Below are positions 53,638 to 62,404 of a DNA stretch of 64,000 bases, one piece after another. Location of the stretch: the NCBI GenBank assembly GCA_049512075.1, contig JBEKXL010000006.1, positions 32,001 to 96,000 on the forward strand, read 5' to 3'. A model generated the notes under the pieces. The model worked only from the letters and a program-made list of their open reading frames with translations. It was not told the origin of the DNA and ran no database searches. The position numbers and the translations under genes are program-made. Position 1 is the stretch's first letter. Every line of letters starts with the position of its first letter. The DNA is from Candidatus Bathyarchaeia archaeon (GTDB lineage Archaea; Thermoproteota; Bathyarchaeia; Bathyarchaeales; Bathycorpusculaceae).

Positions 53638-54609
53638 TTGAGTTTCGAGATGTGGGCTGAAAAGTACAGGCCGAAGAAGCTGAGCGACATCGTTGACCAG
53701 AAAGACATTGTTGAGCGGTTGAAGAGTTTCACGAAATCGAGAAACGTGCCGCACTGCATTTTTGCGGGGCCGCCGGGCACTGGGAAGACCACTGCGGCTC
53801 TTTGTTTGGCAAGAGACCTTTACGGCGATGCTTATAGAGAGCACATGATGGAGTTGAATGCGAGCGACGAGAGAGGAATTGACGTCGTTAGGGAGACCGT
53901 GAAGACTTTTGCGAGGGTGAAATCGATTGGTGAAATTCCGTTTAAAATAATGATTCTGGATGAGGCGGACAACATGACCTCTGATGCTCAGCAGGCTCTT
54001 AGGCGGACGATGGAGCGTTACACGGAGACTTGCCGTTTCATTATGTGCGCTAACTATAGTGGGAGAATAATTGAGCCTATTCAATCTAGGTGTGCTCCTT
54101 TCCGTTTTACCTACTTGCCGAGAGAAGCTCACGATTCTTACTTGATAGAGATGGCTGAAAAAGAAAAGGTGAAGCTGTCAAGTGAGGGTTTGGACGCTAT
54201 TTTTGAGATTTGTGGTGGAGACCTGAGACGGGCCATTAACACTCTGCAATCCGCGGCTTCGTTGGGCAAACCTGTCGATGCAAAGGTAATCTATTCGATC
54301 ACCGGAAAAGCTAGCCCTGCAGACGTGCAAAAGATGATTAAAGTGGCTATGGGGGGTGACTTCATGGAAGCAAGAAAACAGTTGCGTGACATGATCCAGA
54401 AGTACGGTGTGGCTGGGAGCGACGTGATACGTCAGATTCACACAGAACTCTTCAAAGCTGAGCTTCCTGAGCAGTGGAAGATAAAACTGGCTGACATTGT
54501 GGGCGAGGCGGATTTCAGGCTTGTTGAAGGAGCTGATGAAGAGATTCAGTTAAGCGCGTTGCTGGCTAGGCTCGTTGAAGCTGGCTGCGATTTGAGAAGC
54601 GCAAGATAG
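53638..54609 (+). CDS. rfcS: Replication factor C small subunit
   Basis: WAEKYRP, GPPGTGKTT, ELNASDERG, LDEAD, SRC. Confidence 0.97.
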   Translation: MSFEMWAEKYRPKKLSDIVDQKDIVERLKSFTKSRNVPHCIFAGPPGTGKTTAALCLARDLYGDAYREHMMELNASDERGIDVVRETVKTFARVKSIGEIPFKIMILDEADNMTSDAQQALRRTMERYTETCRFIMCANYSGRIIEPIQSRCAPFRFTYLPREAHDSYLIEMAEKEKVKLSSEGLDAIFEICGGDLRRAINTLQSAASLGKPVDAKVIYSITGKASPADVQKMIKVAMGGDFMEARKQLRDMIQKYGVAGSDVIRQIHTELFKAELPEQWKIKLADIVGEADFRLVEGADEEIQLSALLARLVEAGCDLRSAR

Positions 54610-54619
54610 GTGCAGATTC

Positions 54620-55879
54620 TTGCACTTTGCTTGGACCGTTAAGCACACACCGAAGTCACTTGCTGACATCGTTGGGAACGCTGAGGCAATTGAAAAGCTC
54701 AGTGAATGGACAAAATCTTGGGAAAAAGGAATTCCCAAGAAGAGGGCCGCCTTTCTCTATGGGCCGCCGGGCGTTGGGAAAACGGTTACTGCGGAAGCTC
54801 TGGCTCATGATTATGGCATGGAGTTCGTAGAGAATAACGCGAGCGACTATCGAACTGAGGAGGCGATAAATCGGTTTGCAGGGCTGGCCTCGCAATACGG
54901 TTCGCTGTTCGGTGGAAAAAGGATAATTCTTCTTGATGAATTGGACGGGTTAACCGGGACTTCAGACAGAGGCGGGGTGAAGGCAATCACTGAGGTGGTC
55001 AAAGCTGCACAGTGCCCAATAGTCTTGATTGCTAACAGCGCATATGACCCTCGCTTCTCCAACCTCCGCAGCTACTGCCTCTTGATAGAGTTTAAGAAAC
55101 CGCCTGCAGGCGAAGTTGCGAAGCGTTTGAAGTTGATAAGTGAAGACGAGGGGATTCAAGCAGACGAGGCTTCGTTGAAGTTTATTGCCCAACGCTCAGG
55201 AGGGGATGTGCGTTCTGCAGTGAACGATCTTCAGGCGCTGGGCCAGGGTAAGAAAACGTTGACGTACGAGGACGTGTCTTGGCAGGGTTACCGAGATAGG
55301 CAAGACAGCATCTTCAACGTTCTAAGAATGATACTCTACGGAAAGACCTGCGCCAGCGCAAAGCAGGCTGCCAACATGGTGGACGTTGACACTGACATGC
55401 TTTTCGAGTGGATCTACGAGAATGTTCCAGCGCACTTGACGGACCCGCATGATCTGGCCGACGCGATGGATGCACTGTCTGTTGCAGATGTTTATCGCGG
55501 CAGAATCCGCGCGACGCAGGAGTGGGGTTTTTTGCGTTACGTGATAGACTACATGACGGCTGGTGTAGCCCTAGCTAGAAAGAACACCAGAACCTCAGGG
55601 TGGATCCAGTTCAAGTTCCCTGAACGAATACAGATGTTGTCTAGGTCCAGAGCCGAACGTGCCATGAAATTAAGCATAGGCGCCAAGATCAAGAAGAAGA
55701 ACCACATTTCAGCTAGAAGAGCCTCGAGGGAAGTCATTCCGTACCTGAAGATAATGTTCGACAATAATGCTGAGATGGCAGCTGGACTGGCAAAGTGGCT
55801 GGACTTGAACCAGGAAATGGTTGAGTATCTCGTCGAGAGCGAGGAAAAAGCTGAAGCGATCATCAAACTTATGGGTTAA
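54620..55879 (+). CDS. rfcL: Replication factor C large subunit
   Basis: GPPGVGKT, NASDYR, LDELDG, GDVRSAVNDLQ, WIYEN. Confidence 0.95.
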   Translation: MHFAWTVKHTPKSLADIVGNAEAIEKLSEWTKSWEKGIPKKRAAFLYGPPGVGKTVTAEALAHDYGMEFVENNASDYRTEEAINRFAGLASQYGSLFGGKRIILLDELDGLTGTSDRGGVKAITEVVKAAQCPIVLIANSAYDPRFSNLRSYCLLIEFKKPPAGEVAKRLKLISEDEGIQADEASLKFIAQRSGGDVRSAVNDLQALGQGKKTLTYEDVSWQGYRDRQDSIFNVLRMILYGKTCASAKQAANMVDVDTDMLFEWIYENVPAHLTDPHDLADAMDALSVADVYRGRIRATQEWGFLRYVIDYMTAGVALARKNTRTSGWIQFKFPERIQMLSRSRAERAMKLSIGAKIKKKNHISARRASREVIPYLKIMFDNNAEMAAGLAKWLDLNQEMVEYLVESEEKAEAIIKLMG

Positions 55880-55893
55880 CGACTGGTTGCCTG

Positions 55894-56220
55894 CTAGTGT
55901 ATTCTGCTTCCCGGTGCGATGTCCTTTTCTGGCTGCAAGACCACGACGTTGCCCTTTTCGTCCTCGGCGGCGAAGATCATGCACTGGGATTCGACGCCCA
56001 TCATTTTGCGTCTCTGAAGGTTGAGAATGAAGACGCATTTTTTGCCCACGAGATCCTCGGGTTTGTACCACTGCAAGAGTCCGGCAACGGCTTGTCTCTT
56101 TTCAGTTCCAAAATCAACTATCATTCTTATGAGGTTTCGTGACCCTGGGATTTGGTTAGCTTCCACTATTTTTCCAACACGAAGATCGAGTTTTTGAAAT
56201 TCATCAAAGGAGATTTCCAA
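55894..56220 (-). CDS. tRNA-binding OB-fold protein (Trbp111/CsaA/MetRS C-terminal-like)
   Basis: ISFDEFQKLDLRVGKI...NLQRRKMMGVESQCMIFAA...PGSRI. Confidence 0.92.
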   Translation of the reverse strand: MEISFDEFQKLDLRVGKIVEANQIPGSRNLIRMIVDFGTEKRQAVAGLLQWYKPEDLVGKKCVFILNLQRRKMMGVESQCMIFAAEDEKGNVVVLQPEKDIAPGSRIH

Positions 56221-56261
56221 TCTTAAGTCACTGTTTCTCAGTTTTCACGCGGGCTGAGCTA

Positions 56262-56984
56262 TTAAGTTTTGTGCGTTTTTCTTCTGCGACTTATTTTTTC
56301 GATGGTTTTTGCAACGCCTTCCCAGTCTTCGACGGACTTCGAACGGACTATTTCGAATGCTTCCTTCGAGTTCATCCTGGAAAGTTCTTGACCGACAGCT
56401 CTTCTTGAAAGGTATGCTGCTGCGTTCAAGATTTCGCTGTTCAAACGTGAATCTGTCGAGTCTGCCAGGTGGCAGATCAGGGCCTCAATGGTCTTCGGTC
56501 TTATCGGGCTCGCCTCGCCGTGGTGCGCTGACACTATGTGAACCAGTTCTAGCGGAAAGTCCCTGCGAACGAGTTCCGAAGTTGCGAGTGATAGGTGGTC
56601 CAAGTAGTCGGCTAAGCGTGCTGAGCTGTAGCTTCCGTTCTTGTTGATAGTGTATGTTGCTGGTTTGAATATGTCGTGCAACAGTACGCCGGATATGACA
56701 AGGTCGCGGTTTACACTGCCGTGGTATGTCTTCTCCACGGAGTCGCACATTGCCAGTGCGAGGTTTGTTGTTGAAGCGACGTGTTCAATGTATCCGCCCG
56801 AGTAGCTGTGGTGACGTGATATACCGGCGGGCGATGTTTCAAGAGGCAAGCCTGAGTATGTTTTGCCGTTGATTTCGATAGTGGGGTTTTTCAACAGTTC
56901 AATGACCTTCTGGCGAAGGGGTTCGTTGCGAATCTTTTTTGCTATCGCACTGAGTTTTGGGTCTAGCAATTCATTCACTATCAC
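56262..56984 (-). CDS. HD-domain phosphohydrolase, YhaM/Cbf1-like, lacking the N-terminal OB fold
   Basis: SPAG..HHSYSGGYIEH, LLHDIFK, HIVSAHHG, PKTIEA..CHLADSTDS. Confidence 0.85.
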   Translation of the reverse strand: MIVNELLDPKLSAIAKKIRNEPLRQKVIELLKNPTIEINGKTYSGLPLETSPAGISRHHSYSGGYIEHVASTTNLALAMCDSVEKTYHGSVNRDLVISGVLLHDIFKPATYTINKNGSYSSARLADYLDHLSLATSELVRRDFPLELVHIVSAHHGEASPIRPKTIEALICHLADSTDSRLNSEILNAAAYLSRRAVGQELSRMNSKEAFEIVRSKSVEDWEGVAKTIEKISRRRKTHKT

Positions 56985-57699
56985 GGTTCTTATTTGTTGA
57001 GAGGATATTGATTTTTCGTTTCTCGCCTGTTGCTATGCTGTGGGCCATGAGAACAGGTTCTGGCATTCGGTTAGTTGTGGCACAGTGCTTGACTATTTTG
57101 ATGGCGGTTTCTAGCGAAATCATGTGTCCAACGCTGACATAGACGGGTTTGCATCCGCTCTTGGTGGTGACAGCCGCGCCGATGGTCCTTTGGTCATACT
57201 CGATGAGGTTCGCATCGGCTTTGGATTTGGCAGTTTTGACTTCGCCGATCAATTTGCTTTTTGCAACACCGATTACCGGTTTTCTCAGAATGAGTCCCAG
57301 ATGGCTTGCAAATCCGCAGTGATAAGGGTGCGCAAATCCGTGGGCGTCGACTAGGAATAGGTCCGGTTGGGTGTGCAGTTTTCGAGTGCACAGGACCGCG
57401 GGTTCTGTTTCTCTGAAGGAAAGTAGGGTTGGAATGTAGGGAAAACGAGTCTTGCAGAAGGCTGTTTGCTTTTCCACGAGCTTGAAGGAGTCATAGTCAA
57501 GAACTGCTACGGCTCCTATAGACACGTCATCAGTATACGCGATGTCTACACCCGCCACTAAGCAGATTCTCTTGGGTAATCTGTCCTCGAAAGTAATCTT
57601 CTCTGACATGCGTAGCTGAGCTTCATGGGCTTTCTTGACAGAAAAGCGATGTTTGAAGTTATTCTCACCAGTGCTTCTTCGGCGCTGCATTGAGTTCAT
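56971..57699 (-). CDS. nfi: Endonuclease V
   Basis: AGVD, PYIP wedge, SFRE, LVDAHG..HP, IGVAK, PVYVSVGH, RMPEP..AH. Confidence 0.95.
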   Translation of the reverse strand: MNSMQRRRSTGENNFKHRFSVKKAHEAQLRMSEKITFEDRLPKRICLVAGVDIAYTDDVSIGAVAVLDYDSFKLVEKQTAFCKTRFPYIPTLLSFRETEPAVLCTRKLHTQPDLFLVDAHGFAHPYHCGFASHLGLILRKPVIGVAKSKLIGEVKTAKSKADANLIEYDQRTIGAAVTTKSGCKPVYVSVGHMISLETAIKIVKHCATTNRMPEPVLMAHSIATGEKRKINILSTNKNRDSE

Positions 57700-58334
57700 T
57701 TCTTGCTTCTTGCGTACTTTTCAAACTGTCTCAGATGTTTCTCAAGCTCGTTTCTCCGGATTTCTTGGGTTATATCTCCGCGAGTGATCTCGATGAGTTT
57801 TCTAGCAACGTCACATTTCCTCCTTAGGCCTGGCACAAGCATGTAAGATTCGTCCATAGCCATGAGTTCGATGTAGATTTGGTCCATCGTTTGCAGGTAA
57901 TTTTCCCCTTTTTTTGTGTCGCCTTCGCGTAGAGCGTCCAGCACAGCGCGTCTGCATTCGCCTATTACATCAGCCAGTCCGAGCACGTAATCATCCGAAG
58001 GAGCACCAATCTCCTTAGGTGTTATGAACCTCGATTCTTGGACTAGCTTCAGGAATATGTTTGCTTCCGAGTATTCTTGAAGCGCGGCGCTGTACAGGCC
58101 GCAATAAATGATGCTGGGATGCGAGGCTGACATGTCGTTGACTCTTGAAATAGTTTTGCGTGCTTTTTCAATGAATTTTTCTGCTTCTTTCAACCTTTTT
58201 TGATGAATGAGAAGTATTGCTTGCTTCGAAAGGCTCGTTGCTTCTCTCAGATCTCTGTAAGCTGTTTCACGCACTTTGTCCTTGCACATTAGCTCTTTTC
58301 TTGTTTCATCTAGAATAGTTTTCAGAGCGTCCAT
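57696..58334 (-). CDS. Archaeal translin/Trax (C3PO-like) protein
   Basis: QEYSEA, YVLGLADVIGECRR, GLRRKCDVARKLIE motifs. Confidence 0.88.
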   Translation of the reverse strand: MDALKTILDETRKELMCKDKVRETAYRDLREATSLSKQAILLIHQKRLKEAEKFIEKARKTISRVNDMSASHPSIIYCGLYSAALQEYSEANIFLKLVQESRFITPKEIGAPSDDYVLGLADVIGECRRAVLDALREGDTKKGENYLQTMDQIYIELMAMDESYMLVPGLRRKCDVARKLIEITRGDITQEIRRNELEKHLRQFEKYARSKK

Positions 58335-58437
58335 TACGTCAGCACCTTTTTCGGTTTGGAATATGTAGAATAAACGAGTATTTTATCGTATCCTCAAAAA
58401 TAGGGACGGGCGACCGTTGCCCTGTGCCGTGCCCTGC

Positions 58438-60295: not shown

Positions 60296-62404
60296 TTGGC
60301 AAAAATTCGGCTTAGGGCCAAACAGTTAATGTGTTTGTTCTTGATGTTAACATCTGTGCTGCTGGGTTTTTCATTCTTGCCTAGAGCTAGGGCTGTGATG
60401 CAGGTGTTCTCGATCAGTCCTGCCACGGGAAATGTTGGTACGAACGTTACGTTGACGGCAAACCTGACGACGACAAATGGGGCGTATAACGTTACTTTTG
60501 ATGGGGCGGTTCAAGTTGTTGGAAATGCTACTGGAAACAACGTGACCGCCTCGTTTTTAGTTCCAGAGACAACGTTTGGCAACCACACGGTGGCGGTGGT
60601 TGATGTGAGCAACCCCCTTGAGAACGCCACATATCCTTTCTATGTTTCAACGGCATATTACATGAATGTTACTGTGCCTCCAACCCCAACACAGTTGCAG
60701 GAAGGTGACTCAGTACCGATCTTTTTGAATGTAACTGGTGAGTTTGCCAACATGACGTACGGTGCTCAGTTTGATGTTCAAAACCCCGACAATTCGACAT
60801 ACTCTGAAAAGTTGGGCATTTCAACGTCCCCCCGTGGAAGCGGTAGCGTAACACTGACTTATCCTAGAGATTTTTCGACGGGCGCTAACACCAACTACGT
60901 TGGCAATTACGCGGTTTCTGCTAACTTGACAGTTGCCCCAACGAAGTTCATCGTGAGTTTGACGAATTCGACGGAATATCACAGGATGCAGACAGTTAAC
61001 ATCAAGGCAGTCTACGCGTCTAACGAAACCGTTACGCTTAACGTGTCCGGAAACAACATTCAATATTCCGTGAATATGACCGCTGATTCTGCCGGTGTAA
61101 TCAATTATTCGAGCTTTGCAGTGCCGTTGAATGCTTCAGTGGGCACCTATAATGTGAACATTGTTTCAGTAGCTGCATCTCCGACAGTGAAGACTCCTCA
61201 AGATACTCAGAACTTCGCAGTCCCAGGTTTTGCTCTCAATGTGACTGCAAGGAACTTGGCTGGAGACCTCGTGCCAAACGCCCCCGTTAGCGCCTTTGAA
61301 AACGGGACGTCTGTCAACAATCAAACAACCGATTCGAATGGTACGACAGTGTTGATGCTTGAAATTGGAAACTACACTTTGAAAGGATATTTCCAAGGTG
61401 TGGAGGTCGGAGAAGGCCATTTTGAGGTAAACAACACCGAAGCAAGTAATCTTGTACTCAATCTTACAGATCTGAACGTTAGAGTTGTTGCGATTGTGAA
61501 CGGTGCTGAAGTAGGCATCCCCGAAGCGGGAGTCTACCTGACACCGGAGAACGTGACCTTGACAACGGATGTCACTGGAAACGTGGTGGCACAATCACTG
61601 TTGCCAAATAGTACCTACACTCTGAACGCATCGCGGTACAACACGCCGTTTAACGTGACAACGATTATCGAGTCTTCTTCAAACAACACTGTCAACGGAA
61701 CGATTACAAGTCTACTGGTCGGTGGAAGCCCAGTGCCCTTCTTCAACGTAACCATTAGTTGCCCCTCGTACACATTGCAAGTCCAAGCCTTCAAGGCAGA
61801 TGGGCAGCCATTCAGTAATGCTGCGGTGGAGGCCAAAGAGCTGGTTGGCGGCATTAACTATGACGGAAACACTGATTCGAATGGCACTGTCGCTTTCCAA
61901 AATGCTACTCTTGGCGAGTACTATGTGGAGATTCTTGACAGTGCAGGAAAGGAGCTTAACAGCACGACAGTAAACCTGTTCCAAGATCAAAACGTGACCG
62001 TGAACTGTAATCTCTTCGGCTTGAACATTTCGGTCACGGTGACTGACTACTTTGGACAACCGTTTGCAAACACGAACGTAACGTTGCAGGAAAACGGCGT
62101 TGAACCGATTTCGAGTCGGACACAAGCCAATGGCATGGTTACGTTTGCCAATCTGGTAGGTGACAGTTACAGTGTCTCGGTCTACTTGTCAGATCAGGGT
62201 CCACCAACCATGATTGAGGGTCTTCTTGTTGATGGTTCAACAACGGTTTCGATTACAATGAACAGGTACGTGTTGTTGGCTGGGCTTCCAGTTGAAACAA
62301 GTCAACTGGCGGTAGTCATAATCATCGTGCTGAGTGTGCTTCTGGTTCTTTCATTGGAAGTCTACAGGAGAAGAAGAAACAAGAGTCAAAAAACAGACAG
62401 TTGA
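60296..62404 (+). CDS. Cell-surface glycoprotein with IPT/TIG-like and carboxypeptidase-regulatory-like beta-sandwich repeats, C-terminal TM anchor
   Basis: Signal peptide ending ARA; ISPATGNVGTNVT; repeated TDxNG..L..GxY units; dense sequons; TM + RRRRNK. Confidence 0.8.
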   Translation: MAKIRLRAKQLMCLFLMLTSVLLGFSFLPRARAVMQVFSISPATGNVGTNVTLTANLTTTNGAYNVTFDGAVQVVGNATGNNVTASFLVPETTFGNHTVAVVDVSNPLENATYPFYVSTAYYMNVTVPPTPTQLQEGDSVPIFLNVTGEFANMTYGAQFDVQNPDNSTYSEKLGISTSPRGSGSVTLTYPRDFSTGANTNYVGNYAVSANLTVAPTKFIVSLTNSTEYHRMQTVNIKAVYASNETVTLNVSGNNIQYSVNMTADSAGVINYSSFAVPLNASVGTYNVNIVSVAASPTVKTPQDTQNFAVPGFALNVTARNLAGDLVPNAPVSAFENGTSVNNQTTDSNGTTVLMLEIGNYTLKGYFQGVEVGEGHFEVNNTEASNLVLNLTDLNVRVVAIVNGAEVGIPEAGVYLTPENVTLTTDVTGNVVAQSLLPNSTYTLNASRYNTPFNVTTIIESSSNNTVNGTITSLLVGGSPVPFFNVTISCPSYTLQVQAFKADGQPFSNAAVEAKELVGGINYDGNTDSNGTVAFQNATLGEYYVEILDSAGKELNSTTVNLFQDQNVTVNCNLFGLNISVTVTDYFGQPFANTNVTLQENGVEPISSRTQANGMVTFANLVGDSYSVSVYLSDQGPPTMIEGLLVDGSTTVSITMNRYVLLAGLPVETSQLAVVIIIVLSVLLVLSLEVYRRRRNKSQKTDS

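Follow-up and report, generated by a model that had tools for sequence, protein, structure and literature searches.

A layered TRAX-endonuclease V gene cluster in Bathyarchaeia, probably co-transcribed and possibly directed at RNA

What holds together four small genes that follow one another in an archaeal genome and encode, in order, a translin/TRAX-family protein, an endonuclease V (EndoV), an HD-domain hydrolase resembling YhaM and a free-standing tRNA-binding OB protein? The question is raised by a 64,000-nucleotide (nt) stretch of the Candidatus Bathyarchaeia archaeon assembly GCA_049512075.1 (contig JBEKXL010000006.1, positions 32,001 to 96,000), referred to here as the window and numbered from its first letter (Table 1). 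A preliminary description, made from the sequence, took the four genes for an operon encoding a candidate RNA or tRNA quality-control machine. We favor another answer, to which we give a probability of about 0.5: the locus is a layered, probably co-transcribed cluster that carries an RNA-directed module and is not a dedicated four-subunit machine. Its first layer is an ancient archaeal pair, TRAX followed by EndoV, which brackets the O-phosphoseryl-tRNA synthetase SepRS in many relatives. The second is an HD-only hydrolase resembling YhaM, which joined the pair downstream of EndoV in a single order of Bathyarchaeia, and the third is the tRNA-binding C-terminal domain of methionyl-tRNA synthetase (MetRS), detached from its enzyme and, in one family, placed at the end of the row.

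The four genes lie in the same direction on the minus strand, as described, and the list of open reading frames (ORFs) together with Pfam and NCBIfam matches bears out their family identities. The source genome is 99.76% complete, and the nearest public relatives are all titled Bathyarchaeia. Packing of the genes is tight. The ATGA at 57696-57699 contains both the stop of translin and the start of EndoV, an overlap that points to coupled translation, and the OB gene starts 41 nt past the HD stop. An overlap of 14 nt between EndoV and HD had also been claimed; the close packing stands, but the figure holds only for an HD start at GTG 56984, and the alternative starts as we read them (GTG 56978 or TTG 56969) leave 8 nt or none. 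In public databases the HD protein appears at lengths of 240, 238 or 235 amino acids (aa), and the Atlas record begins at residue 3.

Both members of the proposed ancient pair appear catalytically intact. The translin protein scores 47.8 bits against PF01997 (cut-off 25.9), and its best solved relative is Archaeoglobus fulgidus TRAX (3zc1, E 6.8e-21); Nanoarchaeum equitans NEQ131 (5jr9, E 1.6e-9) belongs to the same family. NCBIfam PRK14562 matches as well, under a name, 'haloacid dehalogenase superfamily', that looks inherited. In the alignment with 3zc1, the acidic motifs QEYSE and LADVIGE have QELVE and FADAVGE as their counterparts, and the acidic catalytic residues of C3PO and A. fulgidus TRAX are kept in the window protein; E87, E90 and E126 are invariant and D122 at least 90% conserved among 42 relatives. 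The 3zc0 chain has an A at the TRAX catalytic D position. EndoV scores 212 bits against PF04493 and aligns over its full length with Thermotoga maritima EndoV (2w35, E 2.5e-36). Its GVD, FPYIP..FRE, D-x-x-G and AH stretches align with those of 2w35, and the D/E/D/H catalytic set and the PYIP wedge are present, with P87, Y88 and E97 invariant and D52 at least 90% conserved among 49 relatives. A complex prediction for two copies of translin with EndoV returned a score of 0.01 (mark 0.32), which counts neither for nor against the pairing.

The pairing itself is widespread. Hidden Markov models built from relatives were run over 40 EndoV loci, each taken from a different genome of the phylum; the counts given here and below are over related genomes, which are not independent samples, and are presented without statistics. 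In 28 of the 40 loci translin was no more than 2.5 kb from EndoV: directly upstream on the same strand in 17, on the same strand with one gene of ~530 aa between them in eight, and on the opposite strand, adjacent or one gene away, in three. At least 15 coded GTDB families within the phylum show the linkage. TIGR00470 identifies the gene in between as SepRS, scoring above cut-off in 7/7 cases tested, and tblastn agrees. SepRS adjoins EndoV in 10/40 loci, and the order translin-SepRS-EndoV-HD, or a contig-truncated part of it, was found in seven loci. Across a phylum sample of 401 genomes, EndoV was detected in 311 and translin in 319. A separate observation concerns eight genomes of one coded family, in which translin and EndoV are convergent and about 25-75 nt apart; adjacency is therefore kept even where co-transcription is impossible.

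The core of the locus is already known as a gene cluster. A TRAX-SepRS-EndoV cluster is described by Mukai et al. 2017 (PMC5424206) and in a 2022 Front Genet article (PMC8762117, section 3.1.2), so the earlier statement that no description of the four-gene unit was known does not extend to TRAX and EndoV, which these accounts report, usually with SepRS. An ancestral TRAX-SepRS operon is proposed in PMC5424206. The published cluster is found in Bathyarchaeota and other TACK lineages; in these accounts Bathyarchaeota rank with the lineages whose operon is most complete, and TYW1/Taw1, riboflavin kinase and DUF169 are listed as members that occur now and then. According to PMC8762117, the TRAX-EndoV cluster also occurs in Euryarchaeota and Asgard. 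As in the window, the published cluster has TRAX upstream of EndoV, with both genes on one strand. There are two differences: the published cluster includes SepRS, which the window and its genome lack, and the HD hydrolase and the MetRS tail behind EndoV are not named in the passages on the cluster, although HD might be drawn in the figures of the two papers.

SepRS was found neither in the window nor in the 99.76%-complete source genome, where the best match (E 2.4e-7, residues 178-339, 30% identity) reads as a probable PheRS-alpha-like protein. The source genome has lost SepRS, and the window consequently shows the TRAX-EndoV pair surviving that loss. This persistence of the pair without SepRS is new, as are the recruitment of an HD-only YhaM-like enzyme at the level of one order and the links that this enzyme has formed independently with tRNA genes in other classes.

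The third protein of the row was described as YhaM-like but devoid of the OB domain, and comparisons of sequence and of fold both agree with this. It matches Bacillus subtilis YhaM (9h3f) at E 2.3e-12, covering YhaM residues 117-283 only. A structure model built on 38 relatives reached a pLDDT of 95.2, and Foldseek searches with it returned the YhaM cryo-EM structure 9h3f as the sole match at E <=1e-3 (9h3f_A, E 1.8e-8, TM 0.60/0.67, root-mean-square deviation 2.4 over 186 columns). YhaM (9h3f; 9o7t) and the window protein share the HD fold as well as an extended metal site, H..HD..HH..D. The metal residues are intact, with the H..HD..H..D pattern kept across the 38 relatives, in which H58, H59, H68, H103, D104, K107, H130, D175 and D178 are invariant and H155 is at least 90% conserved. 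YhaM differs in having an N-terminal OB domain and a length of 313-321 aa, compared with 240 aa and no OB domain here. Similarity does not reach the equivalog level, as NCBIfam PRK13480 scores 43.9 bits against a cut-off of 460 and over profile positions 145-281 only.

A profile search of 1.84 billion representatives returned 49 sequences at E <=1e-30, which are HD-only and about 190-250 aa long where full-length. At E <=1e-10 it returned 3725, and among the 150 of these that were listed most are YhaM-like proteins of 300-330 aa with ~110 extra N-terminal residues. The HD-only proteins form a compact family of their own, and the named members that we looked up are archaeal. Database names for members include 'YhaM family' (Methanopyrus kandleri), 'phosphohydrolase' (Desulfurococcales), 'HDIG' (Diapherotrites) and, for one JGI cluster, MptB. 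Weaker HD matches (E 1e-11 to 1e-18) occur in eight genomes of the coded family f15, where they sit in frames of 309-333 aa, the size of full-length YhaM-like proteins and not of the HD-only form.

How far does the row extend as a unit? We compared two sets of HD loci (39 and 80), which share contigs and are not independent of each other; denominators in the larger set are loci with enough flanking DNA, and 78 of the 80 had the HD ORF under the ORF rule that was applied. Translin and EndoV lie beside HD in 34 of the 39 loci; of the five that lack this arrangement, four are contigs that are short or truncated. Among the 80 best HD loci, EndoV is within 300 nt upstream of HD in 65/72, and translin, EndoV and HD are contiguous in 54/69 with upstream room. 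Conservation of the OB gene is narrower. It follows HD in 16/39 loci, which are the 16 closest (HD identity >=57%); in the larger set it lies within 300 nt downstream in 41/77, and all four genes are contiguous in 33/68 with room on both sides. A coordinate comparison within the same order found EndoV and HD adjacent in 17/19 genomes with a strong HD orthologue, the two exceptions carrying a 5-kb insertion that encodes Yip1, an ABC permease and a CARDB protein.

HD matches at E <=1e-8 were present in 97 of the 401 genomes of the phylum sample. Adjacency of EndoV and HD was found in 0/5 genomes from two other families of the same class, and outside the order EndoV or translin was a same-strand neighbor of HD in 0/18 loci; at one of these loci EndoV is 2.3 kb away on the other strand. 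A conserved four-gene unit is not supported, and the row dissolves into nested associations, with HD placed after EndoV only in one order of Bathyarchaeia and OB placed after HD only in the family of the window. Variants of the row were also seen. Translin, HD and OB without an intervening EndoV occur on two Bathyarchaeia contigs (L160/L241 and L171/L243), and translin in L160/L241 is broken into two ORFs, possibly a sign of decay. An archaeal HD gene is present on two contigs titled bacterial, L156 (Acidiferrales, 74% identity) and L183 (Krumholzibacteriaceae, 55% identity), the first of which carries the OB gene too; both are probably mis-binned archaeal contigs.

Beyond the order, the HD family has other partners, and the RNA and tRNA character first ascribed to the neighborhood holds in general. 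In Methanomethylicia, a class-I LysRS gene lies directly downstream of HD on the same strand, from a few bases to about 60 nt away, in 14/14 loci, and the same gene is directly downstream in the five loci of another sample. The polynucleotide kinase Clp1 is convergent with HD in five loci, and a 959-aa class-I aminoacyl-tRNA synthetase is directly upstream in a Nanoarchaeota locus. A CCA-adding enzyme, TrmO, and ribosomal P1 with fibrillarin are neighbors once each.

The last protein of the row has a different origin: it is the split-off C-terminal domain of MetRS (MetRS beta/Trbp111-like). Against TIGR00399, the profile of 'methionine-tRNA ligase subunit beta', it scores 129.3 bits, above the curated limit of 116.65, and its best solved relatives are Trbp111 (1pyb, E 6.7e-26), MetRS beta (8vtz) and the MetRS C-terminal domain (1mkh), with which it agrees in sequence family and length. 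The window gene, however, sits in a nuclease cluster and not beside metG. It is the only tRNA_bind match in the source genome, whose MetRS, encoded on another contig, has 565 aa and no tRNA_bind domain. Across 61 genomes of the class, tRNA_bind was matched in 53, mostly as a single copy that is either a free frame of ~110-150 aa or the end of a frame of 619-697 aa. The free form occurs in 4/4 genomes of the window's family, the source genome included, and the copy lies at the end of 668-690-aa frames in its sister families (5/5 and 1/1), where it forms the C-terminus of MetRS ORFs of 665-684 aa. Four of four fused ORFs tested, from these sister families and one other (608-684 aa), align to the window MetRS at 46-60% identity, and their C-termini then align to the OB protein at 41-43%.

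This identity bears on the proposal that the OB protein supplies in trans the domain that the HD protein lacks. A split MetRS domain was the very finding that the preliminary description had named as refuting that proposal, and on its own terms the proposal is not supported. Two genomes of sister families have the HD gene and only a MetRS-fused tRNA_bind domain. Conversely, genera of the window's family without HD keep translin, EndoV and OB, contiguous in 5/7 loci and 2.5 kb apart in 2/7. The OB protein most likely serves MetRS and not the HD enzyme.

With the OB protein set apart, EndoV, HD and TRAX remain as a candidate functional module. We favor RNA as its target because the core pair and the HD family keep the company of aminoacyl-tRNA synthetases and tRNA enzymes; the substrate would most likely be tRNA or tRNA fragments. 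In such a scheme EndoV would make its nick on the 3' side of inosine or of a comparable lesion, the HD enzyme would trim or repair the 3' end, as a 3'-5' exonuclease or a phosphoesterase, and the TRAX barrel would degrade the single-stranded pieces released. A literature search linking C3PO, inosine and endonuclease V found nothing.

Several points weigh against this reading. The roles assigned to EndoV, HD and TRAX are drawn from gene context, and that the four genes probably form one transcript is suggested by their spacing. EndoV is classically a DNA repair enzyme. Translin was not found within about 4 kb of EndoV in 12/40 loci, one of them at a contig end. The two genes also part company by family: f15 has translin in 53/56 genomes and EndoV in 2/56, and two other coded families have the reverse (translin 0/17 and EndoV 15/17; translin 0/24 and EndoV 23/24), from which it follows that each enzyme works without the other. 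HD is absent from 18/25 genomes of the window's own family, where the row reads translin-EndoV-OB. Neighbors of the HD family that are unrelated to RNA include UppS, a dCTP-deaminase-like protein, NurA, an SSB-like OB protein and Metallophos_2, among others. Finally, B. subtilis YhaM is reported to be a hexameric 3'-deoxyribonuclease acting on single-stranded DNA (PMC12107432).

The last point feeds a real and serious alternative, in which the same enzymes repair deaminated DNA. EndoV would cut at the second bond on the 3' side of deoxyinosine, the lesion-bearing end would be removed by the YhaM-like HD protein acting as a 3'-5' exonuclease, TRAX would bind or cleave single-stranded DNA, and the gap would then be filled and sealed. 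EndoV nicks 3' of its lesion, so a 3' exonuclease is then needed, and a tight placement of HD behind EndoV in one order fits. In the bacterial precedent the hexameric YhaM ring is described as forming from the HD part without the OB domain (PMC12107432), and a few HD loci have genes for NurA or an SSB-like OB protein beside HD. RFC small and large subunit genes lie convergent beside the cluster. This RFC adjacency, however, is convergent in orientation and restricted to close relatives. Also against DNA repair is the company kept elsewhere: the TRAX-EndoV core brackets an aminoacyl-tRNA synthetase in many lineages, and HD is coupled to class-I LysRS throughout the Methanomethylicia loci and in other lineages to Clp1, the CCA enzyme or another aminoacyl-tRNA synthetase. 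Solved archaeal TRAX complexes, moreover, contain RNA. On balance we regard DNA repair as unlikely, though it is the alternative that best withstands the evidence.

Somewhat less probable still is that the genes have no joint function and are housekeeping genes packed into a compact genome, their conservation reflecting slow rearrangement and nothing else. The adjacency of OB and that of RFC do decay together with distance, and both the families with translin or EndoV alone and the dispensability of HD within the window's family would be expected under this view. Against it, the TRAX-EndoV linkage persists across the coded families counted above although the surrounding genes differ, and is reported from Euryarchaeota and Asgard as well (PMC8762117). 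The stop/start overlap points to coupled translation, and in other classes the HD family is independently and tightly linked to tRNA genes.

A third possibility, which we consider improbable, is that the HD protein is MptB, a 7,8-dihydroneopterin 2',3'-cyclic-phosphate phosphodiesterase unrelated to its nuclease neighbors. MptB works downstream of MptA, of the GCHY-1 family, in pterin cofactor synthesis. JGI gives some HD homologues this name, as do the nearest Atlas clusters (automatic names only), and serine hydroxymethyltransferase (SHMT), a pterin-dependent enzyme, is encoded 0.6 kb upstream of the cluster. The reading is weakened because the source genome, at the completeness given above, has no match to PF02649 (GCHY-1; MptA/FolE2), whereas the controls Methanocaldococcus jannaschii, Haloferax volcanii and Methanosarcina acetivorans are positive. 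In addition, the Methanopyrus member is annotated by NCBI as 'YhaM family', YhaM is what the HD protein matches best in both sequence and fold, and the family's neighbors are tRNA genes. Most improbable of all is the four-protein tRNA quality-control machine with an OB domain given to HD in trans, which has in its favor the proximity of the OB gene to HD in the window and in about half of the close loci, and against it the MetRS origin of the OB protein, the genomes that pair HD with a fused tRNA_bind domain, the genera that keep OB without HD, and the fact that tRNA_bind (PF01588) is presumably a different OB family from the N-terminal one of YhaM.

Table 1. Features of the cluster and its surroundings, in window coordinates
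Feature	Coordinates	Strand	Evidence
Translin/TRAX-family protein, 212 aa, first gene of the cluster	57696-58334	-	PF01997, E 2.3e-12
Endonuclease V (EndoV), 242 aa	56971-57699	-	Endonuclease_5 PF04493, E 7.9e-63
HD-only YhaM-like metal-dependent hydrolase, 240 aa (235-240 by start)	56262-56984	-	HD PF01966/HDIG
Free-standing tRNA_bind OB protein, 108 aa, TTG start	55894-56220	-	PF01588, E 2.7e-28
103-nt spacer 5' of translin, with A/T-rich TATA-like stretches and GGTG 8 nt before the ATG; probable promoter and ribosome-binding site region	58335-58437	-	Sequence reading
ORF, 65 aa	58438-58635	-	No Pfam match even at E <=10
SHMT, 493 aa	58945-60426	-	Pfam match begins at residue 110
702-aa protein	60296-62404	+	Many N-x-S/T sequons; C-terminal hydrophobic stretch, then RRRRNK
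RFC small and large subunit genes	53638-55879	+	

Several flanking features deserve mention. The 65-aa ORF, 103 nt upstream of translin, is kept there at 68-92% identity in 17 of the 39 related loci. The listed GTG start of SHMT is probably too far upstream, and the 702-aa product beyond it looks like a secreted or surface glycoprotein. On the other side of the cluster, 14 nt separate the stop of the RFC large subunit gene from that of OB, and the convergent arrangement is kept only in the closest relatives of the 39-locus set.

These results bear on how archaeal nuclease clusters are read. The TRAX-EndoV pairing is widespread in archaea and, in the published accounts cited above, is noted only as a companion of SepRS. 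The compact archaeal HD family that has joined it in one order is named inconsistently in databases (YhaM family, HDIG nucleotidyltransferase, MptB), and a tempting over-reading of the locus is corrected by recognizing the neighboring OB protein as the tail of MetRS. What remains is a concrete set of three enzymes for the question of whether inosine-containing tRNA or DNA is attacked. More tentatively, and with odds that we put well short of even, the HD-only family may consist of archaeal RNA 3'-end enzymes dedicated to tRNA, which together with EndoV and the TRAX barrel would give Bathyarchaeia a pathway for inosine-bearing or damaged tRNA. If this is true, the EndoV-HD-TRAX pathway, which would recognize, nick, trim and clear tRNA, would be a prokaryotic counterpart of the C3PO-linked processing of tRNA fragments in eukaryotes.

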